The notes beneath the pieces were generated by a model, which saw only the letters and a list, made by a program, of their open reading frames with translations, did not search any database and was not told where the DNA came from. From contig CBDCEW010000097.1 in NCBI GenBank assembly GCA_965215885.1, positions 32,001 to 96,000 of the forward strand: 64,000 bases of DNA, in the 5' to 3' direction. The translations under genes were made by a program, and so were the position numbers. Source of the DNA: Candidatus Moanibacter sp. (GTDB taxonomy: Bacteria > Verrucomicrobiota > Verrucomicrobiia > Opitutales > UBA2987). How positions within the stretch are numbered: the first letter of the stretch is position 1; every line of letters starts with the position of its first letter. Of this stretch, positions 7,598-58,667 are shown in pieces.

Positions 7598-8980
7598 TTA
7601 GAAATGAGTCGGTTCTCTCTCGAGGAACCGTCCCCGGCCTGGCTCTCCCACGAACTCTCCGTCGCGCACTGCCACTTTTCCGCGCACCGTTACTATTTCC
7701 GGCCGGCCTTCGATTTCAAATCCTTCGAATCCGCTATAGTCGACATTCATGTGATGGGTCTTCACTGAGATTACGCCTCTAAAGTCGGGATCATAGACCA
7801 CCAGATCGGCATCGCTGCCGACCTGAATCGTCCCCTTTTTCGGAAAGAGTCCGAAGATCTTCGCCGCCCGGGTGCTGGCCACATCAACGAATTTGTGAAT
7901 ATCGAGCTTCCCCTTCTTCACCCCATACGAATACAGGATTTTGACCCGCTCCTCAACCGACGGCACACCGTTTGGGATTTTTGTGAAGTCGTCCTTCCCC
8001 ATTGGCTTCTGCCCTTCAAAATCGAAAGGCGCATGGTCAGTGCCGACCGTGCTGATAAATCCATTGCTCAGCCCGTTCCACAAAGGTTCCTGGTTGCTCT
8101 TCTCACGAATGGGGGGCGACATTACCCATTTTGCGCCTTCAAAATCGGGCCGTTCCGCATATGAACTATCCAAGACGAGATATGGAGCGATGGTTTCCAC
8201 AAAGATCTTAATACCACGATTTCTTGCTGACTGCGCCACTTGCAATGAAGCCTCACAACTCGTGTGCACGACATAGACATGAGCGGCGTGAAGACCGGCG
8301 AAAGTGCAGAGATGATAGACACCGTATGCCTCCACTTCTACCGGCCGGCTCTTTTCATGCCATTCCGTTCCCGTTTTTCCCTCAGCGATAAACTGTTTTT
8401 GCCGTTCTTCCACTGCGGTGGGGTTTTCGCAATGCGCTGTCGTGATAATCCCGTGGGCCTTGGCAAACTGCAGAGTCTTGTAGAGTTCGATGTCTGTGAC
8501 TCCGAAGGCGTCCTTGTAGGCGAGGAATATCTTAAACGACGCAATCCCCCGATCGATGGCTTCCTTTAACTGGGATTCAACCGATTCATCCCATCGCGTT
8601 ACGCCGAGGTGAAACGTCCAGTCGCAGGCAGAGATGCCGGTTGCCTTTGAGCTCCACAGTTCGAATGCTTCGAGCGGCTCATCCGTCCGCGCGGGCACAA
8701 CCATCTCGATATATGTGGTGGTACCACCGCAAAGAGCCGCCTGACTACCCGTGGCATGGGTGTCCTTCGCAAACGTTCCCATAAACGGGAGATAGAAATG
8801 GACGTGCGGATCGATGAACCCGGGAAAAACCTGTTTGCCGGTCGCGTCTATGATATCAGCATCGGAGGGCGCATCCAGATTTTCCCCGATGCGGGTAATC
8901 TGTTCATCTTCGCAGAAGATGTCGGCGAAGAAGCGCTCGCTCGCCGTGATGACCTCACCATTCCTGATCAGTAGCGACAT
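7598..8980 (-). CDS. hydA: Dihydropyrimidinase / D-hydantoinase
   Basis: PGFIDPHVH, SFKIFLAY (carbamylated Lys), AHCEN, VHTS, SPPIR, GTDHAPF and IPNGVP. Confidence 0.93.
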   Translation of the reverse strand: MSLLIRNGEVITASERFFADIFCEDEQITRIGENLDAPSDADIIDATGKQVFPGFIDPHVHFYLPFMGTFAKDTHATGSQAALCGGTTTYIEMVVPARTDEPLEAFELWSSKATGISACDWTFHLGVTRWDESVESQLKEAIDRGIASFKIFLAYKDAFGVTDIELYKTLQFAKAHGIITTAHCENPTAVEERQKQFIAEGKTGTEWHEKSRPVEVEAYGVYHLCTFAGLHAAHVYVVHTSCEASLQVAQSARNRGIKIFVETIAPYLVLDSSYAERPDFEGAKWVMSPPIREKSNQEPLWNGLSNGFISTVGTDHAPFDFEGQKPMGKDDFTKIPNGVPSVEERVKILYSYGVKKGKLDIHKFVDVASTRAAKIFGLFPKKGTIQVGSDADLVVYDPDFRGVISVKTHHMNVDYSGFEGFEIEGRPEIVTVRGKVAVRDGEFVGEPGRGRFLEREPTHF

Positions 8981-10521: not shown

Positions 10522-10616
10522 TATTCTTAGTAATCTTTTCACATACGAAACTCTTCCGCTTGACCCGAATGGCACTAACTTAAGGTACCGTTCCCGTGAT
10601 CACCGATGTTCCCGAA

Positions 10617-18502: not shown

Positions 18503-20833
18503 CTATTTAATCAGGACTTCCTCTTTCTCATCACTCTCTGGTTTTTTTCCTTCTTTGCGGAGCCCACGCGAAGGAATGGCGTCCTTATGCAACTCCATGA
18601 GGACACGCTCAGGAGTCATGGGAGAGTGGAATTTGAAATCGGTATCGGGAGCAAAAGCCTTCATGGCGTTGCGAAGAGCGAAGAAGACACCGATGCCGTA
18701 CATCAGGGGTGGCTCCCCCACAGCTTTGGTGCCTAACGGTCCATACCGATTATCGACGTCCTCCAGAAACTTCACTTCCATGTCGTCCGGCATGAAGTAG
18801 ACATCCGGCGCCTTGTAGGTGGAGAGTGCATGTGATATACAGAGACCCTGCTCGTCCCACTGCAGGTCCTCCATCGTCATCCAGCCCAAACCTTGAGCGA
18901 GACCGCCCTCAACTTGGCCGAGATCGATAGTCGGATTGATGGTTCGGCCGAGATCGTGAACGATCTTGACTTGATCCACCTCATAAATACCTCGCAGGCA
19001 GTCGACCGTTACCTCAATCACCGCCGTACCGAAGACATGATAGGCAAACGGTCGACCCTTCCCTCTCTTTGAGTCGAAATAAATCCCGGGTGTCGAGTAA
19101 AACCCGTGCGCGGAAAGGCGCTTTCGCGACTGGTGCGTCTTTATCACCACATCCTCCCAGGTAAGGCTTGTTTCGGCGCCACCGTAGTAAACGCGCTCAT
19201 CTTTAATCTTTGGTGTCGAGCTGCCGCTCACTTTCAACTCCTTAATGATCACTTCTCTCATCCCTTCGAGGATGGAATTGATGGCGACGATAGTGGCGTT
19301 GCCGTTCAGATCAGTCGTAGCGCTCGCAGCGCTGGCGGACATGTTGGCGATACGGGTAGTGTTGGTGCTCTCGACTCTCACCCGCGACTCTCGGATACCG
19401 AAAGTCCGAGCAGCGATCGCCGCGATATTGCTGCTTATTCCCTGCCCCATCTCAATGCCGCCTGTGCTCACGCCCACGCTGCCGTCCTGATAGACGTGCA
19501 CTAAAGAATTGCCCTGATTGAGGAAAGTCGTGGTAAACGAGATGCCGAAGCAGACGGGCATAAGCGCGTATCCTTTCTTCTTCTCAAAATTAACCGCGTT
19601 GAACTGAGCGACCCTCTTCTTGATCTCCGCGACCCGGTAACCCTCGCTCAATTCGTCCCAAGTCCTTTCCATCCGACAACATTCGACTGCCTGGCCATAA
19701 TAGAAGTGGTCTCCCTCCCGAAGGAGGTTCCTCCGCTGAATATCCTCGGCAGGCATTCCGAGATTTTCGCCTGCCTTATTTATTGCGGACTCGATCACGA
19801 ACATCCCTTGCGGACCACCAAAACCGCGAAAGGCGGTATGGGGTTGCAGGTTGGTTCGGCAGGGCACTGCGGTAACACGAACATTGGGAATATAGTAGGC
19901 GTTAGTGCTATGCATCAGTGTTCTCTCGAGAATAGCCGGAGATAAGTCCGCAAAAGCACCGGAATTCTGATAGTGAGTCGCCTCATAAGCCAGAATCTTT
20001 CCTTCATTGGTCACACCGATCTTAAAATCCGAGGAATAGGGATGCCGCTTCCCCGTCATCTTAATGTCTTCGAGTCGATTGAGCACGAGTTCGACCGGTT
20101 TTCCCAGGAGGGTGGCACAAAGAGACGCCATCGCCGCCCAATGCGCACCTTGCTCCTCCTTACCGCCAAAGCCACCTCCAAGCCGTTTCACATCGACTTC
20201 GATCTTGTGTATAGGCTCTCCTAAAAGAGTTGAGATAGCTATTTGCAACGTAGTCGGATTCTGGGTAGAGGGGAAGACCAAGAGCCTCCCATCCTCCCTC
20301 GGAATCGCCCTCGCCCGGTGGGTTTCCAGGTAGAGATGCTCCTGGCCGCCAATGTCGCACCGGCCTTCCACTACGAGGTCGCAAAGCTTCCAAGCTGAAT
20401 CCACATTACCCATCTCGACGGTGCGTGGTGGATGAATAAAGTCTTTCCTCTTGAAGGCTTCACGCGCATCGATCACAACCGGAAGATCCTCAATCTCCAC
20501 CCGTATCATGTCCCTCGCCTTCCTCGCTAAATCCACCCTCTCGGCCACGACGATTGCGATGGGATGGCCGACAAAACAGACCTCCTTTTCCACCAGGAGC
20601 TGTTCATCCTGAAAGATTGGTCCAAAGCGATTCACGCCTGGAACATCCTTTGCCGTAAATACGGCTACCACACCTTCTGAATCCTCTGCCTCTTTAAGGT
20701 CCAGTTTCTCGATCAAGCCGTGTGCTTTCGGCGACCCGAAGACGGCCGCTTCCAGAATTCCTGTGCGAGGAGGGACGTCGTCGACAAACTGCGATTCACC
20801 TCTTACATGCAGATATGAATCAATGTGCTTCAT
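18503..20833 (-). CDS. xdhB: Xanthine dehydrogenase molybdopterin subunit
   Basis: GQEHLYLE, RLGGGFGGKE, TAFRGFGGPQG, GQVEGG and KAVGEPP. Confidence 0.94.
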   Translation of the reverse strand: MKHIDSYLHVRGESQFVDDVPPRTGILEAAVFGSPKAHGLIEKLDLKEAEDSEGVVAVFTAKDVPGVNRFGPIFQDEQLLVEKEVCFVGHPIAIVVAERVDLARKARDMIRVEIEDLPVVIDAREAFKRKDFIHPPRTVEMGNVDSAWKLCDLVVEGRCDIGGQEHLYLETHRARAIPREDGRLLVFPSTQNPTTLQIAISTLLGEPIHKIEVDVKRLGGGFGGKEEQGAHWAAMASLCATLLGKPVELVLNRLEDIKMTGKRHPYSSDFKIGVTNEGKILAYEATHYQNSGAFADLSPAILERTLMHSTNAYYIPNVRVTAVPCRTNLQPHTAFRGFGGPQGMFVIESAINKAGENLGMPAEDIQRRNLLREGDHFYYGQAVECCRMERTWDELSEGYRVAEIKKRVAQFNAVNFEKKKGYALMPVCFGISFTTTFLNQGNSLVHVYQDGSVGVSTGGIEMGQGISSNIAAIAARTFGIRESRVRVESTNTTRIANMSASAASATTDLNGNATIVAINSILEGMREVIIKELKVSGSSTPKIKDERVYYGGAETSLTWEDVVIKTHQSRKRLSAHGFYSTPGIYFDSKRGKGRPFAYHVFGTAVIEVTVDCLRGIYEVDQVKIVHDLGRTINPTIDLGQVEGGLAQGLGWMTMEDLQWDEQGLCISHALSTYKAPDVYFMPDDMEVKFLEDVDNRYGPLGTKAVGEPPLMYGIGVFFALRNAMKAFAPDTDFKFHSPMTPERVLMELHKDAIPSRGLRKEGKKPESDEKEEVLIK

Positions 20834-22271
20834 AGTAATCCCTCGCTTTGAATTCTTCCGGAAAGAGCCTTATAAAATGTGCGATCATGAGCTGCTGGGC
20901 CAAAAGGCGTTTGTATTCGGCACTCCCCCTGATATCGGTGATCGGCGAGATCTCCTCCTGGGAAATCTCAACCGCTTCCCAGACGGAATCCCAGTTCAGC
21001 GGTCGACCGATGAGATGCTCACAGGTCTTATGCAGGAACAGTGGAATCGGCGCTACGCCTCCGAGTGATAATTGTGCGTTCTCAATGAGACCGTCGTCCC
21101 TGTAAATCTTACAAGCGCTATTCACCGTTGCGATATCGAGGCAGGTCCGTTTAGATACCTTTTCAAAATTGATCTTCGTGCCTTCAGGAGGATCCGGAAA
21201 TACAATCTCCGTCAGAATCTCGTTCTCCTTTCTATCCATCTGCTTGTAGCCTTTATAGAAGGACTTCATGGGAACCGTTCGCTCCGATTTTCCATTCTTG
21301 AATCTCAGCTCGCATTCGAGAGCGAGGAGCAATGCAGTGAAATCCCCGATCGGTGAAGCATTGATGATGTTTCCCGCCAAGGTTGCACGGTTGCGAATCT
21401 GCCACGAAGCTATCAAATGATTAAAAGACTGAATATCCGGGATTATTCGCTGCACATCCGCGTGCTCACCGAATTCTTCAAATGTCGTCAGGGCGCCTAC
21501 CCGAAAAGCTCCATCATCGCGCCGGATCCCTTTCATCTCGGGGAAGAGATTAAGCACCTTAACCGGTGAATCCGGGATGCTCTCGCCTACCTGCACGTAA
21601 AGATCGGTTCCTCCAGCAATGAGATATCTTCCTGCGTTCTTCCCATTACCGGTATGCTTCCCTCCGTCACCGGGAGTTTTCCCCGCAATTCTTTTCAGAC
21701 GTGCCGGAACGTCTTTGAAATACTCCGGAATGGCTTCCGCTTTGACGAGGTCCTCGATCCGGTTTCTCGAGCCCAACCGAGGGCCCACCTCCTTATTCAA
21801 AATCTCCGCACAGTTTTTTAGCGATCGGTATCCTGTGCAGCGGCACAGATTGCCGCCCAAAGCATATTTCACGTCTTCGAGTGCAAGGCCTTTTGTATCA
21901 TCCATCAAGAGTCCGTGCAGCGATACAACGATACCTGGCGTACAATAACCGCACTGGGTCCCTCCTTCATCAACAATTGCCTGCTGCACCGGCGTAAGAT
22001 TATCCATGCGAAACCCTTCAACCGAAACGACGTGCTTGCCCTGCATCTCCCCGAGCGGAACAAGGCAGGAAGTCACAGGTTGGTAGCGAACCGAATCGCC
22101 TTCCAACTCACCGATGAGTATGGCACAGGCCCCACAATCGCCCTCTTTGCACCCCTCCTTGGTCCCTGTCAGACGCTCATTCTTGCGCAGGTAGTCCAAG
22201 ACCAGTAGACCCGCAGGGCACTCCGTCTCTACCTCTCGATCATTTAAGAGGAATCGTATGGTCTCAGACAT
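20820..22271 (-). CDS. xdhA: Xanthine dehydrogenase Fe-S/FAD subunit
   Basis: GTKEGCKEGDCGAC, QCGYCTPG, GNLCRCTGY, AGGTDL and IRNRATLAGN..NASPIGD. Confidence 0.94.
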   Translation of the reverse strand: MSETIRFLLNDREVETECPAGLLVLDYLRKNERLTGTKEGCKEGDCGACAILIGELEGDSVRYQPVTSCLVPLGEMQGKHVVSVEGFRMDNLTPVQQAIVDEGGTQCGYCTPGIVVSLHGLLMDDTKGLALEDVKYALGGNLCRCTGYRSLKNCAEILNKEVGPRLGSRNRIEDLVKAEAIPEYFKDVPARLKRIAGKTPGDGGKHTGNGKNAGRYLIAGGTDLYVQVGESIPDSPVKVLNLFPEMKGIRRDDGAFRVGALTTFEEFGEHADVQRIIPDIQSFNHLIASWQIRNRATLAGNIINASPIGDFTALLLALECELRFKNGKSERTVPMKSFYKGYKQMDRKENEILTEIVFPDPPEGTKINFEKVSKRTCLDIATVNSACKIYRDDGLIENAQLSLGGVAPIPLFLHKTCEHLIGRPLNWDSVWEAVEISQEEISPITDIRGSAEYKRLLAQQLMIAHFIRLFPEEFKARDYYEAH

Positions 22272-22634
22272 TTCGAAGTATATACGATTTAGACTGGGAA
22301 TTCAACTCACCTTCCTGCCGACGGCACTCGGCTGGCACCAATCGAGGCAACTTTCTCCAGTATGCTATTTGCTGATAATGAAGAAGTTAAAGATCAGAAG
22401 GCAAATCTGGATAGAAGCGTGTGTGGTTTCCCACAGTATAACATATTCTCCCTCTCATTTACCGCCGTCAAACAATTTGTGACAGCCTTCACCCGTTTCG
22501 ACCGAGTCTCCGCTCTGCCGCTTCCCGGCAAGCCGGGATTAGAAATATGTCGGTAGTCGAATCCCCCAAACGCACCATCACCCCCAGATATCGGAATAGA
22601 TCCGCAAACTCCGAAAGCTAAGTCTGACAGATTC

Positions 22635-23612
22635 CTAAAGGAATTTCCCCATGACATTACGTTCCTGCAGAATCTGGGCCGCCACGCTGATCGCAATCTC
22701 CTCAGGAGTATCGCTGTCGATCTGCAGACCGACAGGCGCGTAGATCGGATCGAGCCTTTCCTGGGGAATACCTTCTTCTCGAAGCTTGCTATAGATACTC
22801 GCGATCTTTGCTTTGCTTCCCATCAGACCTAAAAAGGGAATTGGAAGCTTTACGGTTCCCAGCAACCCGCGAACGTCGGAGAGAAAATCTGTCGTCATAA
22901 TCAATACCGCTGTCAATTCCGGGTATCGAATCAACCCTCCCGCCTCAATATAGTCGGAGACGATATGAATCTCCCGCGCATCCGTAGCTCTCTCCAAGGT
23001 AAAGACATCTTTCCGCCTATCGACGATGAAGACTTCGTACCCCAGTTTCGCCATTACCTGACAGAGGGCTACAGAACAGTGACCGCCCCCCACAATGGCG
23101 AGCCGCTTGCGGTTAAGAAGCTGCTCCGCATACAACCATTCTCCATTTCTTTGAACTAGTGAAATCCTTGGCTCTTCGAAGTCCGGTTCAGTGTCTTCGA
23201 CGCGGAGACCATTGACATCGATGGTCAACCGGCCCGATTGATCCTCCTGCAGAATTCCAATCAGACGCTCGACCGACTCTATCTCTTTCTCCGGATCGCA
23301 GACGCAGTATATATTCGTCTGGCTTCCTGAGCAGATCATACCCGACTTCTCTCCCTCCCCCGTCTTTCTGTGTTGCAACGTTTGAACTTCTGGAGAGAAC
23401 CCTCTGCCCCCAAGAATTGCCTTCGCGCGGTCGATTAAACGGTACTCCATGGCGCCACCGCCTATTGTGCCATGTAGATCGCCCCCTTCGGTAACGAGAA
23501 ATTTCGCGCCTGGTGTTCCCGGCGATCCCTTAGTATTCTCCGCCACCAGCGAGATGAACGTCTTACTCCCCTGCTGAAGGTGCGACCGAAGAGTTTTCCA
23601 AAAATCAATCAC
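22635..23612 (-). CDS. xdhC: XdhC/CoxI molybdenum-cofactor chaperone
   Basis: GSPGTPGAK, GTIGGG, GMICSG, GGGH, GLMGSKAK and PVGLQIDSDTPEEIAISVAAQI. Confidence 0.9.
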   Translation of the reverse strand: MIDFWKTLRSHLQQGSKTFISLVAENTKGSPGTPGAKFLVTEGGDLHGTIGGGAMEYRLIDRAKAILGGRGFSPEVQTLQHRKTGEGEKSGMICSGSQTNIYCVCDPEKEIESVERLIGILQEDQSGRLTIDVNGLRVEDTEPDFEEPRISLVQRNGEWLYAEQLLNRKRLAIVGGGHCSVALCQVMAKLGYEVFIVDRRKDVFTLERATDAREIHIVSDYIEAGGLIRYPELTAVLIMTTDFLSDVRGLLGTVKLPIPFLGLMGSKAKIASIYSKLREEGIPQERLDPIYAPVGLQIDSDTPEEIAISVAAQILQERNVMGKFL

Positions 23613-24119: not shown

Positions 24120-25991
24120 ATGTCTGAATCTTATACGGAAAAAGACATAAAATCGCTGGACTGGCGTGAGCACATTCGGCTTCGCCCGGGAATGTATATC
24201 GGAAAACTGGGTGATGGTTCAGCAGCTGACGATGGGATCTACGTGCTCCTTAAGGAAGTGATCGACAATTCCATCGACGAATACGTTATGGGTCAGGGCA
24301 AGAGTGTAGACATTACGCTCAAGGATAATACCCTCACGGTACGCGACTATGGCCGCGGGATACCATTGGCAAAAGTGTACGAATGTGCCGCCGGTATCTT
24401 TACCGGGGCCAAAGTTTTTCTTGCGCCTTTTGCGCCTCTTTACGACTCGGAAGCATTCAAAAAATCGGTCGGTCTCAACGGTATCGGCCTAAAGGCGGTG
24501 AACGCGCTTTCCTCTCAATTCCAGATCGAAGCGTTTCGAGAGCAACAGACACGAGGCTGTGTGTTTTCTCAGGGTAAAGTGAGAAAACAGCACAAGAAGA
24601 ATCGACCTTCCAAGGAAGGGAACGGAACCAGGGTCTGCTTTTATCCAGATGAGGAAATTTTCGGTAGTTTCAAATTTCGCCAGGAGTACATCGAAAATAT
24701 GGTTTGGAACTACGCCTACCTCAACGCCGGCCTCACCCTGAAAATCAACGGGAAGCGATACAAATCCAAGAACGGCCTCTTCGATCTTCTTACCGAGAAT
24801 CTTAATACGGAACCTCTTTACCCAATTATTCACCTAAAGGACCGGGATATTGAAGTCGCATTTACGCACGGCAATCAATACGGCGAGGAATACTATTCAT
24901 TCGTAAACGGCCAGCACACCACTCAAGGAGGTACTCATCAGGGCGCTTTCCGCGAAGCCATTGTAAAGACAATCCGTGAATTCTACAAAAAGAGCCTCGA
25001 AGCGATCGACGTGAGGACGTCGATTATTGCGGCGATCAGCATTAAAATCGAGGAACCTATTTTCGAATCGCAGACGAAGACTAAACTCGGCTCTCAAAAC
25101 ATGGCGCCGGAGGGCCAGTCAATTCGGGCCTTTGTAAACGCCTTTATGCAAGAACACCTGGACAATTTTCTGCATCGTAACCCGGAGACAAGCAAAGCCT
25201 TACTTCAGAAGATTCGACAGAGTGAACGAGAACGTAAGGAGCTGAAAGGCATTCAAAAAATTGCCCGGGAACGCGCAAAAAAGGCGAATCTCCACAACAA
25301 GAAGCTGAGGGACTGCAGGATCCACTTAAACAAGACCGACAAACGCAAACTGCAATCGACACTATTTATTACGGAAGGCAATTCCGCCAGCGGTTCCATA
25401 ACAAAATCGCGCGACGTTAACACGCAGGCAGTGTTCAGCCTGAGAGGAAAGCCGTTAAATTGCTTCGGTCTTTCAAAAAAGGTGGTTTACGAGAATGAGG
25501 AGTTCAACCTGCTACAAAACGCGTTAAACATTCAAGACGGCCTGGATAACCTGCGTTACAATCGGATCGTCCTCGCCACCGACGCCGATGTCGATGGTAT
25601 GCACATCCGTTTGCTCCTGATCACGTTTTTCCTCCAGTTCTTTCCAGATCTCGTAAAACAGGGTCACCTCTACATCCTTCAAACTCCACTATTTCGAGTA
25701 CGCAACAAGAAGCAAACCCTCTATTGCTACACGAAATTGGAGAAAGATGCCGCTCTCAAGAAACTGAGCGGCCGGCCGGAAATCACCCGGTTCAAGGGTC
25801 TCGGTGAGATATCATCTGACGAGTTCAAACACTTCATCGATGAGAACATGCGCCTCGACCCCGTTGTGATCCGAAAACATGCATCGTTAGATAAAACGCT
25901 TAGCTTCTACATGGGAAAAAACTCCCCGGAAAGGCAGAAATTCATAATCAGGAATCTCAGAATTGATCAGGATCTCGCTGAAGTTACGTGA
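24120..25991 (+). CDS. parE: DNA topoisomerase IV subunit B, carrying a 9-aa insertion in the ATP lid
   Basis: [58 protein letters not shown] and RFKGLGE. Confidence 0.92.
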
Positions 25992-26131: not shown

Positions 26132-27085
26132 CTAATTGGTTATCCGAGTCCCCGTTTTGCCATCTAACGCATTCACAATATTCTCCGGATCAGTGATAAT
26201 GGCCTCCTTCCCGCCTCCCTCCAGATAGTTGATGACTGCCTGGATTTTCGGGCCCATGCTTCCCTCCGCAAAGTGGACACCTTCCGCCAGGTAGGCTTTC
26301 GCCTGCGCCACGGTCATCTGATCTATCCATGTCTGGTTGGGCTTGCCGAAATTCAGTGCGACCCGCTCGACCGCCGTGCTGATAATGAGCATCTCAGCTC
26401 CGATCACGTTAGCGAGCAAAGCTGAGGCGAGGTCTTTGTCGATCACCGCAGCGACACCACTGAGATTGCCGGTTCCGTTTCTCACCACCGGAATGCCTCC
26501 GCCACCGACCGTGATCACGACAAAACCGGCTTCGATCAGCTCGGCGATCGATTTCTCTTCGACAATTCGAATGGGCGTTGGAGATGCCACGACCCGCCGC
26601 CACCCACGACCGGCATCTTCGACAACATCCCAACCCTCCCTCTCGCGCCGTTGCTCCGCGTCCTCTTCATCCATGAACGAGCCAATCGGCTTACTTGGAT
26701 TCTCAAAGGCGGGATCATCGGCCGCCACTTCGACTTGTGTTACCAAGGTAACCGGATGTCGATTGAGTTTGAGCCTCTGGAATTCATTACAGAGGTTCTG
26801 CTGCAGAGCATATCCGATCGCACCTTGTGAATCCGCTCCGCAGACATCGAGAGGCACTTCATGGAGTTCATGGGCTGCCAATTCTGAACGTCGCAAGATG
26901 AAGCCCACTTGAGGTCCATTGCCATGACCGATCGCCACGTTCCATCCATCGTCGATCATCGACACGATATGACGGCAGGTCTCACTCGCGGCAATATACT
27001 GATCCCGTACCGTCTGGTGCGTTTTGTCCCTGATCAAGGAATTCCCTCCGATCGCTACGACTGCTTTGCGTCCTCCCACAATCAC
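26132..27085 (-). CDS. arcC: Carbamate kinase
   Basis: VAIGGNSL, HGNGPQVG, PSKPIG, RRVVASP, GGGGIPV, AVIDKD and GSMGPK. Confidence 0.94.
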   Translation of the reverse strand: MIVGGRKAVVAIGGNSLIRDKTHQTVRDQYIAASETCRHIVSMIDDGWNVAIGHGNGPQVGFILRRSELAAHELHEVPLDVCGADSQGAIGYALQQNLCNEFQRLKLNRHPVTLVTQVEVAADDPAFENPSKPIGSFMDEEDAEQRREREGWDVVEDAGRGWRRVVASPTPIRIVEEKSIAELIEAGFVVITVGGGGIPVVRNGTGNLSGVAAVIDKDLASALLANVIGAEMLIISTAVERVALNFGKPNQTWIDQMTVAQAKAYLAEGVHFAEGSMGPKIQAVINYLEGGGKEAIITDPENIVNALDGKTGTRITN

Positions 27086-27232
27086 CCCCCTCCCCGATCG
27101 TTCATCTGCCGAACTTCAATGGCTTGATCGATTCAAGGGCCCAATTCCGAAGGAAACGAGCTTCCCTGTTGAACACGAGCCCTTCGACTCTTCTCAGGAT
27201 CTTCGCTTCCTGAACTCTGAATACTTCCCGCG

Positions 27233-28210
27233 TCATCGCATAGTCAACGCCATCACTGCTTTCTGAACATGCAGCCGATTTTCCGCTTCATCAAAGACGA
27301 CCGACTGCGGTCCGTCGATGACACCGTCCGTCACTTCGACATTGCGATCCGCCGGTAAAGGATGCATGTAAACAGCGTCTTCGGATGCGAGTTCCATCCG
27401 TCGCTCATCCGCGATCCAATCGCTATACTTGCTAATTATCTTCGCACCCTCCTGGTCGTCGGTAGTCGTATTCATGGCTCCCCAGCTTTTTGCGTAAACG
27501 ACATCAGTTCCCGTAATCCCGGCCTCGAAATCGTCCATCAATTCAAGACTTCCGTGATGGCGCCGGGCGTTGTCTCGAGCCTGTTCGACAACATCGGGCA
27601 TAAGCTTGAACTCCGGCGGATGCACCAACCGCACATTCATGCCGAAGCGCGTCAAGAGTAGAATGAGGCTTTGCGGCACACTCATCGGCTTCTGATAGCT
27701 GGCCGCATAGGCCCAACTCACTGTAATCGTCTTGCCCCGGGGATCACCCTTCTTCTCAATAACAGTCAGAAGGTCGGCAAGAACCTGAAAAGGATGATAA
27801 GTCTCGCACTGCATATTCAGCACGGGCACCCGACTCGCCTCCGCCGTCCATCGAAGATACTGCGTCCCGACACCCCAATCGCAATGTCGGATAGCGATTC
27901 CGTCATTATAGCGACCGAGGATCTCTCCGATCTCCTTGGTTGTATCTCCATGGGCGATTTGCGTGGCTCGACTCTCAATGAACTGCGCGTGCCCACCCAG
28001 CTGAGCCATGCCCGCCTCAAAGGATGCGCGGGTGCGAGTGCTTGAGAAGAAAAAGAGCATGGCGAGCACCTTATCTCGAAGGAGTGCATGCGAGACTCCC
28101 AGCGCCCTCTTCCTTTTCAGATCAAGGGCGACATCGATGACTGTTTCAATCTCCTCCTTCGTCCATTCCTGCGTCGTGATCATATCACGACCCCTTAAAT
28201 ACGTCTGCAT
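27233..28210 (-). CDS. YgeW-like (knotted-type) transcarbamylase
   Basis: SSTRTR, HPFQ, SWAYAASYQKPMSVPQS, YAKSWG and MHPLPADR. Confidence 0.85.
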   Translation of the reverse strand: MQTYLRGRDMITTQEWTKEEIETVIDVALDLKRKRALGVSHALLRDKVLAMLFFFSSTRTRASFEAGMAQLGGHAQFIESRATQIAHGDTTKEIGEILGRYNDGIAIRHCDWGVGTQYLRWTAEASRVPVLNMQCETYHPFQVLADLLTVIEKKGDPRGKTITVSWAYAASYQKPMSVPQSLILLLTRFGMNVRLVHPPEFKLMPDVVEQARDNARRHHGSLELMDDFEAGITGTDVVYAKSWGAMNTTTDDQEGAKIISKYSDWIADERRMELASEDAVYMHPLPADRNVEVTDGVIDGPQSVVFDEAENRLHVQKAVMALTMR

Positions 28211-28346
28211 GATAAATACCTCTCTTATATAACCTATCTACAAATTCTCAAAGACCCTGGAATCTGTCGGACCCAAAGTCCGACGGATTCCTTTCTAGCA
28301 GCCTGATCAAAACAGTTCGAATAAGTCCGATCCCGGCTTGCCGGGA

Positions 28347-29306
28347 CTAGCCCTCGACCGCACCCAACACCAACGCGAGCAATGCCATGCGCATCACGAC
28401 CCCGTTAAAGGCTTCCACCCAGTATCTCTGGTGGCGAGTGCTGTCGACATCCGTTGGTAGCTCGTCCATACGCGGCAGGGAATGCAAAATGATCGCATCG
28501 CTCTTCCCTTTTTCGCGCATCATCTCACGCGTTACCTTATAGGCGGCCGGGGTCGTTCCCTTCTCCTCATCCGCCGCTTCATCGCGCGACTTCGTGTAAT
28601 CGGCCTGGACGACTGGTTCCATGTAAATAACATCGGCCTGATCGATCACTTCCTCGGCCGTTTCCACTTCGCGATACTGCACGTTGCGCTCATCGATCTC
28701 CGCCTTGAATTCGTCGAGTAAGGACATCTCCGGCGGGCCTACCACGAATGCTTCAATATCAAATTGCGACAGGGCATACAGAATCGAGTGCATCGTCCGC
28801 ATTCGCATGTCCCCTACGCAGAGCATCTTCAAACCATCCAGCGTTCCCTTCTCCTTATAAATCGTATACAGATCTGTAAGGACCTGCGTGGGATGTTCGC
28901 CCCAACCGTCGCCGCAATTGATCACCGGTACCGATGCCCACTTCGCTGCCTCGTGAGGAGCCCCCTGCTGGTAATGGCGCATCGCGATGACATCGCCGTA
29001 ATACTCCAGCATGTTTATCGTGTCCTTCATCGACTCCATGTAAAAGTCGCCCGCCCGCGTCATCTTGGCGTCAGAGAATCCCAGCACATGCCCGCCCAGT
29101 CGATGCATCGCCGCCTCTGTAGCAAGGCGCGTCCGAGTGCTCGGCTGGTAAAATGCCGTCAGCAGCGTCTTATTCTTGAGCAGGTCGCCATTTCGCCGAT
29201 CGCGCGCATACGGCTTCAAGTCATCACAGACTTGAAATACTCTCATGAATTCGTGTCGCTCAAACTCTTTGAGCGATAGGATATCGCGTCCTAGAAAACT
29301 TCTCAT
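28347..29306 (-). CDS. Aspartate-carbamoyltransferase-like transcarbamylase with altered substrate pocket
   Basis: PSTRTR, HPTQ, GD..MRTMHS and LHSLPR are present; YMEPVVQAD replaces the RxQxER motif. Confidence 0.85.
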   Translation of the reverse strand: MRSFLGRDILSLKEFERHEFMRVFQVCDDLKPYARDRRNGDLLKNKTLLTAFYQPSTRTRLATEAAMHRLGGHVLGFSDAKMTRAGDFYMESMKDTINMLEYYGDVIAMRHYQQGAPHEAAKWASVPVINCGDGWGEHPTQVLTDLYTIYKEKGTLDGLKMLCVGDMRMRTMHSILYALSQFDIEAFVVGPPEMSLLDEFKAEIDERNVQYREVETAEEVIDQADVIYMEPVVQADYTKSRDEAADEEKGTTPAAYKVTREMMREKGKSDAIILHSLPRMDELPTDVDSTRHQRYWVEAFNGVVMRMALLALVLGAVEG

Positions 29307-29468
29307 TTTGCTCCGTTTCCATTAATATTTCTAATCAACTAAAAAGGGCCATGGATGTGTGTCCGTCCCCGTCGAAAAAAGACGCTCTATCTGCCGAAGA
29401 ATCTATAATTATGCAAGTACGAATATGATACAGAACTCCACTCTCACTGCCTTGGTCCGGAAATCTCA

Positions 29469-29714
29469 GAACGTGTTTAGTGGCCTTCGGTTGTTGGCTG
29501 CCCCGGTCTTGTGCCGGGGTTGCGCGCGGTTTTTGCTACATAATGAGTGGCTCCTCCAATCACACCACCGGTCCCTTCTCGCCCGAGTCCCGGCGCGCCG
29601 GGACTCGGGCGAGAAGGGACCGGTGGTGTGCTGTGCCCATCGCGTATACTAGCTGTATATCGCGCGCCACCCCGGCACAAGACCGGTGCAGCCTCAAACA
29701 CGCCAAACAGGTAC
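29469..29714. mobile_element. MITE/REPIN-like element with inverted GGCTGCCCCGGTCTTGTGCCGGGG arms and a central 70-bp perfect palindrome
   Basis: Arms at 29496-29527 and about 29661-29693 are inverted. Ends gaacgtgtttag / ccaaacaggtac; palindrome at 29561-29630; left arm recurs near 49683-49755. Confidence 0.8.
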
Positions 29715-29821
29715 AAATTTCACAGATTTCCGAACCCGGGCGAAACCCGGCTTGCCAGGTTGTAAATCCAGAACCCGCCTCCGTGATATTTCGCTCGGCA
29801 ATGAAATCTTCGGGCTAGGAT
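29650..29821 (+). repeat. Direct repeat A flanking IS copy 1 (partner 31734-31896)
   Basis: 29650-29767 is identical to 31734-31851; the remainder is similar with small indels. Confidence 0.92.
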
Positions 29822-31733
29822 GACCTTATCCGAAAAGCTACTGATTGGCCGCAAAGAGGCGCAAAAGGCGCAAGAAAAACTTGAGAAAAATCATTTTTTG
29901 GCTTGATAAAAAGTGTCGCAACATGCTAGTGTTTAACAACCTAAGATTAAGAAAGGAGTTAAACATGCCAACATGTGCGACAGAGGAGAACAAAAGCGAT
30001 AAGACGCCCCTTAGCAACCTCATTCTGCCGGTTCCAGACACGGATTTCCGTGATTTTCTGGATGAAGTTGAAGAATTGGCCGGGTTCGCGGCGCAAATCA
30101 TCGAGGCGATCGAGAAGGATCTGGACGCCCATGCGCGTGAGAAGAAGAAACTTCGATTGGAAGATCGCAGGTTCTTTGAAGGGCGCACAGCGGAGCTGCC
30201 GGAGCTGGACATCGAGGAGGAGAATATTCTGGCTGCTGAATTGAATCTTGGGGCAGGCCGGCCGCGGATGCCGGCTTATGCGGTATACGTGTTCGTGATG
30301 CTTCGAGGGTTTCTGGGTTCGTTGACCACGAAACCGGCACGGCGGTTTGTGCGCGAGTCGATGAGCTTGTACGGATTTTTGCAGAGCGGGGGACTGAGAA
30401 TGCCGGCGGTGACGACGATTCTGGAGAACGTGAACCTGGTCAGCCATACGACCCGCGAGTTGATCTTTGATAAACAGATTGGGTTTATCCTCCAGGAGCA
30501 ATGGGACGATTTCGGGAAGCTGACGATCGACAGCACCTCGGTGAAAGCAAACAGCTGCTGGCCCACCGATGGGAAGATTCTGAGCGGTCTTTTGATGCGG
30601 GCCAATCGTTTGGGTCAGAAGTTGCATGTCTTCGGGCTGGAGGATTTTCGCAAGGGATGGGTTGGGCGTTGGCTGGAGGAAATGGACAAGCTGGAGTTTC
30701 AGATTTGTCTGGCCGCGGGCAAACCGAAGTCGAAGGGCAAGCTGAAGAAACACTACCGGCGGTTGCTCAAGCGGGGCCGCAAGGCGGCCGACTCACTAAC
30801 GGGGGAACTGAGCCATCTTGAAGAGGGCCTGTCGATGGATTCACTGCCTCCCACTCGCCGGGAGCTTCTGGAGCGGGCATTGAGCCAGATCAGGGGCGAT
30901 ATTGCCGACGCCAAGCGGGTTGTTGAGTATGCTCATGATCGGGTGTTTCACGAAAAGAAGCTACCGTCCACACAGAAGGTCCTGAGCCTCTCGGACGGAT
31001 CGGCGGCCTACATCAAGAAGGGCAGCCGCAATCCAGTGATCGGGTACAAGCCACAACTGGTTCGCAGCGAAAACGGTTTTGTCACCAGCCTGATCGTACC
31101 GCAAGGCAACGCGGCAGACTCCATTGAGCTGGCGCCGGCCATCGGCGATTCGATCAAGCGCACCGGTGTCATTGCTGAACTGGTCAGCACCGATGACGGA
31201 TATGCTTCGGCGAAGGGACGCAAGGAGGTGCTGAGCATGGGGGTAAAGCAGATCAGTATCAGTGGGGCGAAGGGCAAGAAGTTGACCACCCCCGAGGACT
31301 GGGAGAGCGAGGCGTATCGCGAGGCACGCCGCGATCGCTCCGCAGTGGAGTCGCTGATGTTCACGATTAAAGATGGATTTGCCTTTGGCGAACTCGGCCG
31401 CCGCGGCATCGATGCGGTAGGCGATGAACTGCTCGAGAAGGTTCTGGCCTACAACTTCTGCCGCATCATACTGATGAAGAAACGCCGAGGGGAGGAACTG
31501 GAACAGGCAGCCTGAATCTGACCGCTTTGAAGCTCAGAGAAAAAAGCACCACGGGATGAGTATGCCTCCAGACAGCGGCAAATATACGTATTGTGCAGCA
31601 AGCCACGCCGATGGCCGCTCAATACCTGCTCATCGGCAGCGCCGGCAGCCTAAAACCCGAAACCTGCCAGCCATAGGCTGGTCCGCCCGTGGCGGAGAAC
31701 CTTAAACCGCCCGCTCGCTTTTCGAATGGGGTC
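29822..31733 (+). mobile_element. DDE insertion sequence (IS5-like/ISNCY type), copy 1
   Basis: Imperfect IRs gaccttatccgaaaagc and (rc) gaccccattcgaaaagc. Near-identical copy at 58668-60592. Confidence 0.92.
29965..31515 (+). CDS. DDE transposase
   Basis: AAGGAG SD before ATG; TIDST..ANSCWPTD, STDDGY and RSAVES motifs. Confidence 0.88.
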   Translation: MPTCATEENKSDKTPLSNLILPVPDTDFRDFLDEVEELAGFAAQIIEAIEKDLDAHAREKKKLRLEDRRFFEGRTAELPELDIEEENILAAELNLGAGRPRMPAYAVYVFVMLRGFLGSLTTKPARRFVRESMSLYGFLQSGGLRMPAVTTILENVNLVSHTTRELIFDKQIGFILQEQWDDFGKLTIDSTSVKANSCWPTDGKILSGLLMRANRLGQKLHVFGLEDFRKGWVGRWLEEMDKLEFQICLAAGKPKSKGKLKKHYRRLLKRGRKAADSLTGELSHLEEGLSMDSLPPTRRELLERALSQIRGDIADAKRVVEYAHDRVFHEKKLPSTQKVLSLSDGSAAYIKKGSRNPVIGYKPQLVRSENGFVTSLIVPQGNAADSIELAPAIGDSIKRTGVIAELVSTDDGYASAKGRKEVLSMGVKQISISGAKGKKLTTPEDWESEAYREARRDRSAVESLMFTIKDGFAFGELGRRGIDAVGDELLEKVLAYNFCRIILMKKRRGEELEQAA

Positions 31734-31896
31734 TAGCTGTATATCGCGCGCCACCCCGGCACAAGACCGGTGCAGCCTCAAACACGCCAAACAGGTACAA
31801 ATTTCACAGATTTCCGAACCCGGGCGAAACCCGGCTTGCCAGGTTGTAAATTCGAAAAGTTGTGATATTTCGCTCGGGAAATCTTCGGGCTAGGAT
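31734..31896 (+). repeat. Direct repeat B (duplicate of 29650-29821; ssnA upstream region)
   Basis: Direct sequence comparison with 29650-29821. Confidence 0.92.
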
Positions 31897-31938
31897 GGCT
31901 CTCTTGACAGAAAACAACAAGATACCTACCGCTTCTCG

Positions 31939-33264
31939 ATGACAATTCTCATAAAGGACGGTACCGTTGTTACACTTGGAGAGCGTAACACGATCTTGAA
32001 GCAACACTCCCTTCTCTTGCGGGACGACAAGATAGAGCGCATTGCGCCCACTTCCGAATTTGCCGACGTGGAGGCGGATACGGAGATCGACGCGAGTGGA
32101 CAGCTGGTGCTTCCCGGTTTCATAAACACGCACACGCATTTTTACAGCGCGCTTTCACGAGGTCTGGGAAAGGTGCCCCCATCGAAGAATTTCGTCGAAG
32201 TGCTGCAGAACCTCTGGTGGCGGCTGGACCGGCAATTGACACCGGAAGATTGCTACTACAGCGCCCTCGTCAGTTGCATCGACGCCATCAAGCATGGCAC
32301 GACCACGTTGATCGACCACCATGCCAGCGAAGGCCATGTTCGCGGTACTCTCTGGGAGATCGAAAAGGCTGTCCTGGAGACGGGAGTTCGGGCCTCGCTC
32401 TGTTTCGAACTAACAGATCGCGAAGGCTCTCAAATTGCGGAAGACGGTATTGCGGAAAATGTGGCGTTCATTGAGGAAAAACAGAGAGAAAATTCATCCC
32501 GGATAAAGGCGCTATTCGGACTTCATGCAGCGTTTACGATTGAGGATGACACCCTCGCTCAGGCCGTTCAGAAAGGAGCGGAACTCGGCGCCGGTTTCCA
32601 CATTCACACAGCGGAGGATCAGGCGGACCAGGACCACAGCATGAAGAAACATGGTATGAGGGTAGTCCAACGCCTCCATAAATTCGGGGTTCTCGGTCCG
32701 CGGACGATTTGCGCCCACTGCATACACGTTGATGAGAATGAAAGAAACCTGCTCGCGGAGACCGACACCATAGGCGTTCACCTTCCGCAATCAAACATGA
32801 ACAATGCCGTCGGGGTAGCGGATCTGGTCGGCCTCGTGAGCGAAGGGATTCTCTACGGATTGGGCACCGACTCGATGACTAACAATATGCTCGAGGAACT
32901 GCGAGTCGCCCTCTGGGCCCAGCATCTTAGTAAAAACAATCCCAGTGTCGGTTTCACGGAGGTTGTCGACTCGCTTCTTGTGAATAATCAGAAGATCATT
33001 TCGCGTTATTGGAACGACGGAATCGGTGTGTTGAAGGAGGGATACAAGGCCGACATCGTGCTGATGGACTATGCCTCTCCCACACCGTTCAACGAAGATA
33101 CCTTCTACGGGCATATTGTCTTCGGTATTGCTCATTCCTCGGCGAGAACGACGATTGCCAATGGTCGCATCCTCATGCGCGACCACCAACTCGTCGACAT
33201 CGACGAGGAGAGAATCGCGGCCCGCGCCGCGGAGCTGGCCCAAGCGCTCTGGGATCGGTTTTAA
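31939..33264 (+). CDS. ssnA: SsnA-like amidohydrolase
   Basis: PGFINTHTHFYSALSRG, LQNLWWRLD, TTLIDHHAS, GLHAAFT, HIHTAE, SNMNNAVG and GLGTD. Confidence 0.85.
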   Translation: MTILIKDGTVVTLGERNTILKQHSLLLRDDKIERIAPTSEFADVEADTEIDASGQLVLPGFINTHTHFYSALSRGLGKVPPSKNFVEVLQNLWWRLDRQLTPEDCYYSALVSCIDAIKHGTTTLIDHHASEGHVRGTLWEIEKAVLETGVRASLCFELTDREGSQIAEDGIAENVAFIEEKQRENSSRIKALFGLHAAFTIEDDTLAQAVQKGAELGAGFHIHTAEDQADQDHSMKKHGMRVVQRLHKFGVLGPRTICAHCIHVDENERNLLAETDTIGVHLPQSNMNNAVGVADLVGLVSEGILYGLGTDSMTNNMLEELRVALWAQHLSKNNPSVGFTEVVDSLLVNNQKIISRYWNDGIGVLKEGYKADIVLMDYASPTPFNEDTFYGHIVFGIAHSSARTTIANGRILMRDHQLVDIDEERIAARAAELAQALWDRF

Positions 33265-36014: not shown

Positions 36015-37097
36015 ATGCTACTTCAGGAGTCGACAAAATCTAACGGGGCAGAGGCCCGGGAAAAGGGGCAGGAGGCGGCTTTCGCCAGGCTCGTGCATCG
36101 GATAAATCGCGATCTCGTTGTCCACAAGCCCTGGATATACTGGACCGATTTATCCATTACAGTGACGGTGGCTCTTACCTTTCTGCTGGTGAGCGTTCGG
36201 TCTCCCGCAGGAAGCGTGCAACAGATTCTTGCGCTCGTCGCCGCCGGCTTCGCCTTTTACCGCGCTTCCATCTTCACGCACGAAATCACCCACATGCCCC
36301 ACGGTTCGTTTCGCACTTTTCGGGTGGTTTGGAATCTGTTCATCGGCATACCCCTAATGACTCCTACATTCCTTTACTGGGACCACAAGTCGCATCACGT
36401 CAATCATTCATACGGCACCAGCACGGATGGAGAGTACTTCCCAATGGGACTCGGTCCGGTGGAACTCATTTATGTTTATCTGGCCCATATCATTCTGGTT
36501 CCCGCCGCAGCCATTTTACGGTTCGTTCTATTGACGCCCCTGTCTTTGTTGCATCCAGGTCTTCGGCGCTTCGTCTGCCAACGGATGTCTTCCATCGCCA
36601 CCATGAATCCGCGCTACCAGCGGCCTTTGCCCCGCAGTCGAGATCGCATCTGGTGGGGATTGCAGGAAGCAGGGTGTTGCCTGTTCGGCTGGGGCCTCGT
36701 TGCTCTCACCGCCTTCGGCACAATAAAGTGGCATGGATGGGTGTGCGTCTACGTCATTTTCGTCATTGTCGCGACCTTAAATTACATCCGGCAACTCGGT
36801 GCGCACCGATACTTGGGCGAGGGGGAGCAAATGACCTATCGCGAGCAAATGCTTGATTCCACGACAATCGCCACCAATCCCATCAGCGGAGAATTGTGGG
36901 CGCCGTTAGGTATGCGTTATCACGCCCTGCACCATCTGTTGCCGTCCCTTCCCTATCACTCCATGGGCACGGCCCACCGGCGCCTCATGAGTCGCTTACC
37001 GGAGGATTCCCCTTATCGCCTCACTATTCGGCCCAGTCTGTGGGCGGCCATCGCGGATGTCATCCGTAATGCGGGAAAAGAGAAAAAGCACGATTAA
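36015..37097 (+). CDS. Membrane fatty-acid desaturase family protein
   Basis: His boxes HEITH, HKSHH and HALHH; TM segments. Confidence 0.9.
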   Translation: MLLQESTKSNGAEAREKGQEAAFARLVHRINRDLVVHKPWIYWTDLSITVTVALTFLLVSVRSPAGSVQQILALVAAGFAFYRASIFTHEITHMPHGSFRTFRVVWNLFIGIPLMTPTFLYWDHKSHHVNHSYGTSTDGEYFPMGLGPVELIYVYLAHIILVPAAAILRFVLLTPLSLLHPGLRRFVCQRMSSIATMNPRYQRPLPRSRDRIWWGLQEAGCCLFGWGLVALTAFGTIKWHGWVCVYVIFVIVATLNYIRQLGAHRYLGEGEQMTYREQMLDSTTIATNPISGELWAPLGMRYHALHHLLPSLPYHSMGTAHRRLMSRLPEDSPYRLTIRPSLWAAIADVIRNAGKEKKHD

Positions 37098-37099
37098 CT

Positions 37100-39100: not shown

Positions 39101-39136
39101 GCCAATGGTCCATGGTCTTATGCCGGGCTGGAATTA

Positions 39137-40522
39137 ATGCCTGCGGTTGGGACACAATTGAATCGAAACCCCTGGTGGATTCCCCGCCTGCTGTTTGGTT
39201 TAGCGCCCGAGGTTGAACGCCGCAAGTTGACGCTCCTCGGCTGTGTCGCCATCGCCATGTTTTACGAGAATTACGACCTCTCCCTCTTGAACACTTCGCT
39301 CAAGCACATCGCCGAGTCTCTCCGCGTGGAAGAGACGAATCTTGGATATTTTGTCGCCAGTATCCGGTTTGCCGGGCTCTTCGGATTGCTCCTCATTCCC
39401 GCTGCCGACTTGATCGGCCGTCGACGACTTTTCCTCATATCGGTCATCGGAATGAGCCTAGGCACAGCCCTGACAGGAGTCAGCCAGAGCCCTGAGCAGT
39501 TCGTGCTCCTGCAGATGGCAACGCGCGGATTCATGATCACGGCGTGCGCCATGGCAGTGGTGATCCTGGTGGAGGAGTTTCCCGCGGAACACAGGGGTTG
39601 GGCTATAGGAATGCTCGGCACCGCCTCCGTGGTGGGTCATGGCGCTGGGACGCTACTTTTTGCCTGCATTGATGCGATGCCCTTCGGATGGAGAACACTC
39701 TATCTCCTGGGTTTCATTCCGATAATAAGGTTGCCGATGTTCAGGCGGGGGATCTATGAACCGGAGAGGTTCCAACGCTACCAGCGCGATGATCTCGGAA
39801 ATCGTTCTCTCGGATACTCCTTTACTTCCTGGCTTCGTCCTTATGGCAATCTTATACGGCGGTTCCCGCTTGGCTTCGCCCTCATGGCCGGGGTTGTCAC
39901 GTTGGCCTACGGTGGCTTCGCCGTCGTGTTCAGCTTCATTGGATATTTTGTGCTTGTCTATCGAGGATTGGAACCCTGGCAATTTGCCGCCCTGTTAATC
40001 CTCTCCGGTTCCTTATCCATACCGGGAGCAAGCTTCAGTGGTCGTATGTGCGATCGCTATGGCAGGCGACCGGTTGGCTGTTTCTCACTGATTACTTTCG
40101 CCGTTTGCACCTGGGTCTTTTTCCGGGGTACCGAATGGGCAATGTATGCAGTTGCTGTACCCATGATGTACTCGGCGATCTCTGGATACGTCGTAATCAT
40201 GGCCCTTTCATCGGAACTGTTCCCCACCCCATTGCGAGGAACATCGTCGGGATTGGTAATGCTCCTGGGAGCCACTGGTTCGGGTATCGCCCTGTCGTTG
40301 GTGGGCGCCTTGACCGTGGCTCCGGGTGACATTATTATCTATGTCCCAATTCTCGCGCTTTCGACCGTCTTGAGTGCATCTTTGATGCACTATCTACCAG
40401 AAACGAAAACTCGCGAACTCGAGGAAATCTCATGGCAAAAGACGACACCAAAGGCTAACCGGAATTCGGGCTCGCGCGTGGATGAGGCGCTTGCAGCTGG
40501 CGATGCGAAAATTGAGATCTGA
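39137..40522 (+). CDS. MFS transporter
   Basis: ADLIGRRR, EEFPAEHRG, CDRYGRR, SELFPTPLRG and LPETK. Confidence 0.92.
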   Translation: MPAVGTQLNRNPWWIPRLLFGLAPEVERRKLTLLGCVAIAMFYENYDLSLLNTSLKHIAESLRVEETNLGYFVASIRFAGLFGLLLIPAADLIGRRRLFLISVIGMSLGTALTGVSQSPEQFVLLQMATRGFMITACAMAVVILVEEFPAEHRGWAIGMLGTASVVGHGAGTLLFACIDAMPFGWRTLYLLGFIPIIRLPMFRRGIYEPERFQRYQRDDLGNRSLGYSFTSWLRPYGNLIRRFPLGFALMAGVVTLAYGGFAVVFSFIGYFVLVYRGLEPWQFAALLILSGSLSIPGASFSGRMCDRYGRRPVGCFSLITFAVCTWVFFRGTEWAMYAVAVPMMYSAISGYVVIMALSSELFPTPLRGTSSGLVMLLGATGSGIALSLVGALTVAPGDIIIYVPILALSTVLSASLMHYLPETKTRELEEISWQKTTPKANRNSGSRVDEALAAGDAKIEI

Positions 40523-58654: not shown

Positions 58655-58667
58655 ATGGCGCTAACTT

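Follow-up and report, generated by a model that had tools for sequence, protein, structure and literature searches.

A pseudo-ATCase family linked to the reductive urate pathway: a candidate phosphorolytic counterpart of YgeY

In Escherichia coli and Clostridium, reduction and dearomatisation of urate are followed by opening through SsnA and HyuA, which yields 2,3-diureidopropanoate; a phosphorolysis by YgeW turns one of its ureido groups into carbamoyl phosphate, from which YqeA makes ATP, and YgeY hydrolyses the second, the set as described comprising XdhD–YgfM or XdhAC, YgfK, SsnA, HyuA, YgeW, YqeA and YgeY as well as YgeX (PMC12507026; 10.1101/2025.04.24.650524). The pathway was solved in 2025, and the two papers differ on the ureido group that is cut by YgeW, a point listed as open in PMC12990295. 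Here we analyse a 64,000-nucleotide stretch of Candidatus Moanibacter sp. ('the window', G000:C97:32001-96000, where G000 is this genome), in which genes for a pseudo-aspartate carbamoyltransferase (pseudo-ATCase, TC1), a short YgeW-type carbamoyltransferase (TC2) and a carbamate kinase (CK) lie in series on the minus strand, with ssnA divergent on the plus strand. The locus is best read as encoding the lower steps of the reductive urate pathway (2,8-dioxopurine/yanthine pathway), those in which energy is conserved. From sequence comparisons, we put at about 0.6 the probability that TC1 carries out the YgeY-type step by phosphorolysis, displacing YgeY.

G000 resembles the described systems in having SsnA, CK, a YgeW-type carbamoyltransferase, a selenium-dependent xanthine dehydrogenase (Se-XDH) and a D-hydantoinase. 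It differs in that genome-wide searches returned no ygfK, no ygeX match at E 1e-8 and no ygeY (best match 90 bits against a cut-off of 321.5), and in the extra ATCase-derived carbamoyltransferase. Further differences are an F420-LLM enzyme with cof genes, a substitution for the dearomatising reductase that is proposed in PMC12507026, the presence of other PLP enzymes, and a TC2 that is 70 residues shorter than YgeW.

Barba et al. (2013) describe one pseudo-ATCase from Nocardioides sp. JS614 beside a ygeW homologue, xdh and hyuA, with no function given where it is described, and another pseudo-ATCase subgroup, the only one assayed, that is the catabolic enzyme UGTCase (PMC4016543). Like Barba's subgroup 2, the TC1 family has invariant STRT, HPTQ and HSLP motifs, and its V-x-P motif reads VQP in 62 of 213 sequences and VQA in 151, including the window's copy. 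A locus from another Nocardioides (L049) has the ygeW-homologue/xdh/hyuA layout; the likeness to JS614 is judged by published motifs and layout. Unlike Barba's single sequence, the TC1 family spans hundreds of genomes. UGTCase (Rubrobacter xylanophilus Rxyl_2847) is likewise ATCase-derived, is encoded beside CK in purine catabolism, and has the R167 equivalent and H(T/S)LP, but it has S80/K84 equivalents, GX[SC] and a uricase plus allantoinase context (the oxidative route), where TC1 has R84/Y89, EPVVQ and an ssnA context. The rows of Table 1 in PMC4016543 seem shifted relative to its text, which is resolved by PMC4581275 giving H(T/S)LP to UGTCase. With PyrB (ATC II), TC1 shares the fold and the carbamoyl-phosphate site, but not RxQxER and K84, which it has lost. 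A literature search, with subscription journals outside its coverage, returned no paper that assigns a function to the TC1 family or proposes a replacement of YgeY. The variant of the known pathway that is proposed here builds on a family glimpsed in 2013.

Sequence and fold of TC1 and the other carbamoyltransferases

TC1 scores 254.5 bits against the ATCase profile TIGR00670 (cut-off 236.95) and is under the cut-off of NF002032. It is labelled an ATCase because the first of these is passed, and databases name its homologues aspartate carbamoyltransferase. Homologues with ≥81% identity fall into at least 120 clusters, and at least 586 confirmed stretches in GTDB genomes match the family. Residues were compared in an alignment of 213 sequences (120 cluster sequences, 92 from loci and the window's copy) that is biased to members above ~70% identity. 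All 213 keep the carbamoyl-phosphate site equivalents S52-T53-R54-T55, R105, H134 and Q137, together with the R167 equivalent (R170 in TC1). RxQxER (R229, Q231) is absent from TC1, with EPVVQ[A/P]DY in its place. The S80/K84 loop has given way to a conserved TRAGDFY loop, and the substitutions S80→R84, K84→Y89, T228→E230, R229→P231 and P266→S276 are found in 213 of 213 homologues, in which Q234, D236 and Y237 are also invariant. The initial annotation had read the kept STRT, R105, HPTQ and R167 equivalents and the loss of RxQxER correctly; it had also found no evident K84 loop, and K84 is indeed gone, but the loop is replaced by one with its own invariant residues rather than simply missing. 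In the alignment, TC1 E230 stands opposite D231, an amine-binding residue, of E. coli ornithine carbamoyltransferase (OTCase), where it binds the α-amine. D231 is given as an ornithine-binding residue in PMC4581275.

The AlphaFold model of TC1 (pLDDT 93.2) finds Pyrococcus abyssi ATCase (1ml4) as its best Foldseek match, with a TMq of 0.88 and 40% identity. The predicted fold is that of an ATCase; model and match bear on the fold only, not on pocket geometry. A FastTree phylogeny built from 128 sequences gives TC1 its own clade (support 1.0) within a wide radiation of paralogues that lack RxQ, and its homologues are 70–93% identical across several phyla. Dozens more of the non-RxQ paralogues have the TRAG/SRAG 80s loop in common and a different 240s motif in each, and they appear to constitute a large unexplored pseudo-ATCase radiation. 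Judged by its residues, TC1 is an ATCase-derived paralogue with the carbamoyl-phosphate site intact and the second pocket rebuilt.

G000 holds three carbamoyltransferases: TC1, TC2 and PyrB. The initial annotation had raised the question of a canonical pyrB elsewhere in the genome; one is present at C97:113923-114915, between pyrC and pyrF/E, with the RVQKER motif and both ATCase cut-offs passed. TC1, which in G000 is not inside a pyr operon, is therefore not the sole pyrB, and it is not the cell's ATCase. The PyrB of G000 (pyrC–pyrB–pyrF/E, region C97:112820-116925) is ~34% identical to the pyrR–pyrB–pyrC type of other members of the window's family. In that family, TC2–CK follow pyrR–pyrB–pyrC in one row, and in one member, G307, the row continues with TC1–TC2–CK; catabolic carbamoyl phosphate may feed pyrimidine synthesis in these organisms.

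TC2 is under the curated cut-offs for YgeW (189.6 against 453 bits and 179 against 500 bits) and passes no carbamoyltransferase cut-off. At 325 residues against 396, it does not have the extra N- and C-terminal and 240s helices of YgeW. It keeps the equivalents of Q98, Q160, S200, K203 and K270, five of the six proposed YgeW substrate residues, with the D124 position Cys/Asp-shifted, and contains a proline-rich loop (SWAYAASYQKP). Overall scores place TC2 at much the same distance from OTCase, AOTCase and YgeW; in the 128-sequence tree, which contains no AOTCase, it is sister to YgeW (support 0.97). Of 45 ssnA-positive Chloroflexota, 39 carry TC2 at ≥55% identity, and we therefore regard it as the ordinary YgeW counterpart. 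A role as the missing argF is unsupported: an argF-type OTCase and argG were not found in G000 or G307 (argH is present), and relatives carry an argF-type OTCase as well as TC2.

Gene neighbourhood and the distribution of ygeY

Neighbouring genes were counted within 10 kb in the best 80 loci of the at least 586 TC1 stretches, and 50 of the genomes behind these loci were searched whole. The commonest markers are PALP503 (68 loci), a Mo-hydroxylase that matches the Se-XDH marker (65), TC2 or YgeW (62, two being knotted YgeW), PALP477 (60), ssnA (53), CK (52) and F420-LLM (41), followed by hydA (18), ygfK (11), a UacY-like gene (7), ygeY (3) and an allantoinase-like gene (3). The tie to ssnA, TC2 and CK anticipated from the window is therefore tight, and it extends to Mo-hydroxylase genes. 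TC2 directly follows TC1 in the window and in 41 of the 74 loci with room downstream. A TC2-like match exists in 47 of the 50 genomes, and two of the remaining three have knotted YgeW at the locus; a replacement of YgeW by TC1 is ruled out, since TC1 accompanies TC2 or YgeW. A D-hydantoinase was found in 49 of 53 genomes (the 50 and three added). A purine-catabolic role of TC1 is very likely. PALP503 and PALP477 are two uncharacterised fold-type II PLP enzymes, one cysK-like (~500 residues) and the other thrC-like (~420–480 residues), which occupy the place of YgeX in most TC1 loci (L001-L080).

Among the 50 genomes, ygeY is over its cut-off in three. Control genomes were picked by ssnA and not by TC1. 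Of 401 sampled Actinomycetota genomes 32 are ssnA-positive; four unpublished ones were set aside, and in the 28 that were followed ygeY is found in 0 of 7 with TC1 and in 18 of 21 without it (17 over the cut-off, one split over two contigs); three small genomes have neither gene. The exclusion has a Fisher p of 1e-4, or 3e-4 without the centre genome, with kin that are not independent. Chloroflexota display three states of one synteny block: ade–ygeY–TC2–CK (L105), ade–gntR–ygeY–TC1–TC2–CK (L090-L095) and ade–gntR–TC1–TC2–CK with ygeY cleanly gone (L097-L099). Gain of TC1 followed by loss of a redundant ygeY would leave such a pattern. The three states recur within the window's own family, in which TC1 occurs in only one of 60 relatives (G307, 93% identity); G301, G303, G305 and G308 have TC2 and ygeY without TC1, G306 has ssnA without TC1, TC2 or ygeY, and G000 itself has TC1 and TC2 without ygeY. 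Across the 61 rows of a TC1 tree, ygeY switches state six times, three of these switches being forced by strong branches, and the direction of change cannot be read; the TC1 of G307 is absent from it as a duplicate row, which leaves one known ygeY-positive row fewer.

Proposed reaction and alternative readings

In the reaction sequence that we favour, TC2, as the YgeW counterpart, would cleave the first ureido group of 2,3-diureidopropanoate, and TC1 would then convert mono-ureido-diaminopropionate and phosphate to 2,3-diaminopropionate and carbamoyl phosphate. R170 (R167) would hold the carboxylate and the invariant E230 the free amine. CK would pull the TC1 reaction, so that the yield per purine would be two carbamoyl phosphates (2 ATP) rather than one. 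Upstream steps in G000 would be served by the Se-XDH and an F420-dependent LLM reductase encoded on contig C104, with PLP enzymes in place of YgeX. The carboxylate-binding Arg and invariant Glu would suit a substrate that bears a single carboxylate, free amine and ureido group, as both mono-ureido isomers do. The ATCase ancestry of TC1 (α-N-carbamoyl chemistry) and the kinship of TC2 with N-acyl-ornithine enzymes favour action of TC1 on the 2-ureido group and of TC2 or YgeW on the 3-ureido group. The substrate would thus most likely be the 2-(α)-ureido group of 3-amino-2-ureidopropanoate, favouring the order of Liu et al., with the 3-ureido group of albizziin as the alternative. The α-ureido phosphorolysis put forward in the initial annotation is plausible, although sequence cannot separate α- from β-ureido; its option of a ureidopropionate (pyrimidine) substrate finds no support.

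That two carbamoyl phosphates are released per purine, in either cleavage order, we consider probable. More tentatively, with odds a little short of even, we propose that TC1 is a new 2-ureido-diaminopropionate phosphorylase that arose from ATCase by exchange of the acid pocket for an amine pocket, possibly for a D-amino acid. It would have repeatedly displaced YgeY and doubled the substrate-level ATP from urate in a large environmental form of the pathway that is F420-linked (found in Actinomycetota, Chloroflexota and Planctomycetota, among others), and its specificity would set YgeW on the 3-ureido group.

Several observations weigh against the displacement of YgeY by TC1. Among 251 Chloroflexota genomes 45 are ssnA-positive, of which 8 have both genes, 4 TC1 only, 30 ygeY only and 3 neither, so that ygeY stands beside TC1 in 8 of the 12 TC1-positive genomes (odds ratio 0.2, p 0.07). 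In one of the eight, TC1 is truncated and fused to TC2; at L095:8072-9400 (G198, a ygeY-positive genome), TC1 residues 1–183 and TC2 residues 103–324 share one 486-codon frame, which reflects either a fusion by deletion or a misassembly. G307, the closest relative that bears TC1, has it inserted ahead of TC2 and keeps ygeY. Strict mutual exclusion is ruled out as a general rule by these genomes: the anti-correlation predicted in the initial annotation holds in Actinomycetota and among the closest homologues, and is loose in Chloroflexota. Given this co-occurrence TC1 and YgeY may not be redundant, and lasting co-retention also fits different specificities of the two. A UacY-like D-aminoacylase gene is divergent from TC1–TC2 at L010, L012, L015, L019, L023, L040 and L073, mostly with hydA; in Clostridioides difficile, UacY replaces YgeW. 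R241 in the 240s loop is kept in 212 of 213 homologues, and the register of the rest of this loop varies between aligners. The genomes compared are metagenome-assembled, and related ones are not independent. The lack of ygeY in G000 is weak evidence, because this genome is 90.3% complete, ridden with insertion sequences (IS) and decaying, with mmsA (window 9006-10575) and PALP503 frameshifted and preT, preA, argF and argG not found; the pathway may no longer be complete in this organism, though TC1, TC2, CK and ssnA are intact. ATCases act on L-aspartate. For the intermediates of the pathway, by contrast, a D-configuration is proposed (PMC12990295).

Two alternatives, each unlikely to a similar degree, keep TC1 in the reductive urate pathway. 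In the first, the order is reversed: the initial cleavage, at the 2-ureido group of 2,3-diureidopropanoate, would fall to TC1 and give albizziin, from which TC2 or YgeY would remove the 3-ureido group, still with two carbamoyl phosphates where ygeY is missing. TC1 would then resemble UGTCase acting on allantoate, the lower homologue of diureidopropanoate. S276 has its counterpart in the H(T/S)LP motif of UGTCase, a suggested binder of a ureido nitrogen (PMC4581275), diureidopropanoate resembles allantoate (PMC12990295), and albizziin is described as being converted to pyruvate by YgeY and YgeX (PMC12507026); this order would also account for ygeY kept beside TC1 in 8 genomes. It sits poorly with TC1 having been added to TC2 or YgeW rather than exchanged for it, ygeY being the gene that disappears, and with the invariant E230, which suggests a free amine in the substrate, and the retention in TC2 of K270 of the N-acyl-ornithine-type enzymes. 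In the second, TC1 would complement YgeY by acting on the other enantiomer or regioisomer of mono-ureido-diaminopropionate or on a side product, and ygeY would be lost only where that route carries the flux. We doubt this as well, since the 47 of 50 TC1 genomes without ygeY must clear the main intermediate without YgeY. It would explain the intact ygeY beside TC1 in Chloroflexota, G307, L003, L017 and L065, at least six state changes (three forced) on the TC1 tree, the two PLP enzymes that accompany TC1, and the two products described for SsnA, together with a stereochemistry given as open (PMC12507026, PMC12990295).

A less probable reading takes TC1 out of the pathway, to act on another ureide (allantoate, as UGTCase does, or N-carbamoyl-β-alanine derived from pyrimidines) or to supply or consume carbamoyl phosphate in biosynthesis. 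A sister pseudo-ATCase is UGTCase (PMC4016543), and TC2–CK, or TC1–TC2–CK in G307, follow the pyrR–pyrB–pyrC row. Yet allantoinase-like genes occur in only 3 of 80 loci, GX[SC] and the S80/K84 of UGTCase are absent from TC1, G307 has its own nitrilase-type enzyme in a pyrimidine operon, and the neighbours of TC1 are reductive-urate genes. The TIGR00670 cut-off passed by TC1, its fold and its name in the sources might speak for a second ATCase, whether ordinary or degenerate. This is hardly credible: all 213 homologues lack the R229, Q231 and K84 equivalents, a canonical pyrB is present, TC1 has a fully supported clade of its own, and 70–93% identity across several phyla speaks against decay.

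The locus, the remaining pathway genes and implications

Table 1. Features of the window, with positions counted from its first nucleotide
Feature	Position	Strand	Remarks
TC1, pseudo-ATCase, YMEPVVQ[A/P]DY / HSLP family	28347..29306	-	319 aa; TIGR00670 over cut-off; AlphaFold/Foldseek predict ATCase fold
TC2, short YgeW-type carbamoyltransferase	27233..28210	-	325 aa; 34% to E. coli YgeW
CK, YqeA/ArcC type	26132..27085	-	317 aa; TIGR00746 370.6 bits vs cut-off 358.25; NF009007 396 vs 266
ssnA, ring-opening amidohydrolase of reductive urate pathway	31939..33264	+	NF005540 540.9 vs 444; TIGR03314 505.2 vs 455.5
ISNCY-like insertion sequence, transposase ORF 29845-31515	29819..31732	+	NF033593 259 bits, under cut-off
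~170-bp direct repeat around IS	copy 1 29650..29820, copy 2 31734-31896		copies 91% identical
hydA, dihydropyrimidinase/hydantoinase	7598..8980	-	only D-hydantoinase over cut-off in G000
xdhC–xdhA–xdhB, aerobic-type xanthine dehydrogenase	18503..23612	-	all under curated cut-offs

The gene order described in the initial annotation agrees with the positions of the open reading frames (Table 1), and in a profile search the carbamate kinase is over the arcC/PRK12352 cut-offs. An ISNCY-like element, unmentioned there, separates TC1 from ssnA and is no part of the pathway. It has more than 100 near-identical copies in G000 and CTAG at either end (ends read by eye). In relative G301, ssnA is likewise divergent from a gene row ending in TC2–CK, and this shared layout is therefore older than the IS insertion. 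A second ISNCY-like transposase lies at 58651-60369, and other IS families are frequent in the assembly too; their abundance suggests a recent IS expansion accompanied by gene decay. Within the ~170-bp direct repeat, the first 65 bp come from a family of short repeats that has 39 matches in G000, and there is a further repeat in the region upstream of TC1. A promoter and terminator scan gave hits at chance level only (3 vs 4.7 and 8 vs 8.6).

Other steps of the pathway are represented on contig C104, which carries an Se-XDH over its cut-off, the LLM gene with cofG, cofH, cofD, cofC, cofE and npdG, a thrC-like PLP enzyme and the frameshifted PALP503 (G000:C104:110621-112103). The initial annotation had taken the nearby xdhCAB and hydA as context, a use that finds no support. 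The xdhCAB genes are of the aerobic XdhAB type, a type other than the cluster's Se-XDH on C104, and a topoisomerase B-subunit gene lies between them and the CK cluster; they are purine-related and only possible members of the module. hydA lies 17 kb from the cluster beside mmsA, and its G307 orthologue (80% identical) belongs to a nitrilase–preT–preA–mmsA–hydA pyrimidine operon, whose preT, preA and nitrilase-type genes were looked for in G000 and not found. As the only D-hydantoinase over cut-off in G000, hydA may double as HyuA. The topoisomerase B-subunit gene (24120-25991) abuts CK and the matching A-subunit gene (G000:C104:264683-266677) abuts the Se-XDH; the two may formerly have flanked the purine genes. 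Elsewhere in the window, 10981-12969 encodes a pyridine nucleotide-disulphide oxidoreductase that carries a DEP domain (PF00610) at its N terminus, unusual for a bacterium, and 36015-40522 holds in a row a desaturase-like membrane ORF (labelled by eye), an asparagine-synthase-like amidotransferase and an MFS transporter, a possible small biosynthetic cluster.

If the proposed function of TC1 is true, an ATCase-derived enzyme that replaces YgeY would offer an independent approach to the dispute over which ureido group YgeW cuts. The transcarbamylase family would also gain a new activity, a widespread misannotation as 'aspartate carbamoyltransferase' would be corrected, and the substrate-level ATP obtained per purine would be doubled in many environmental bacteria.

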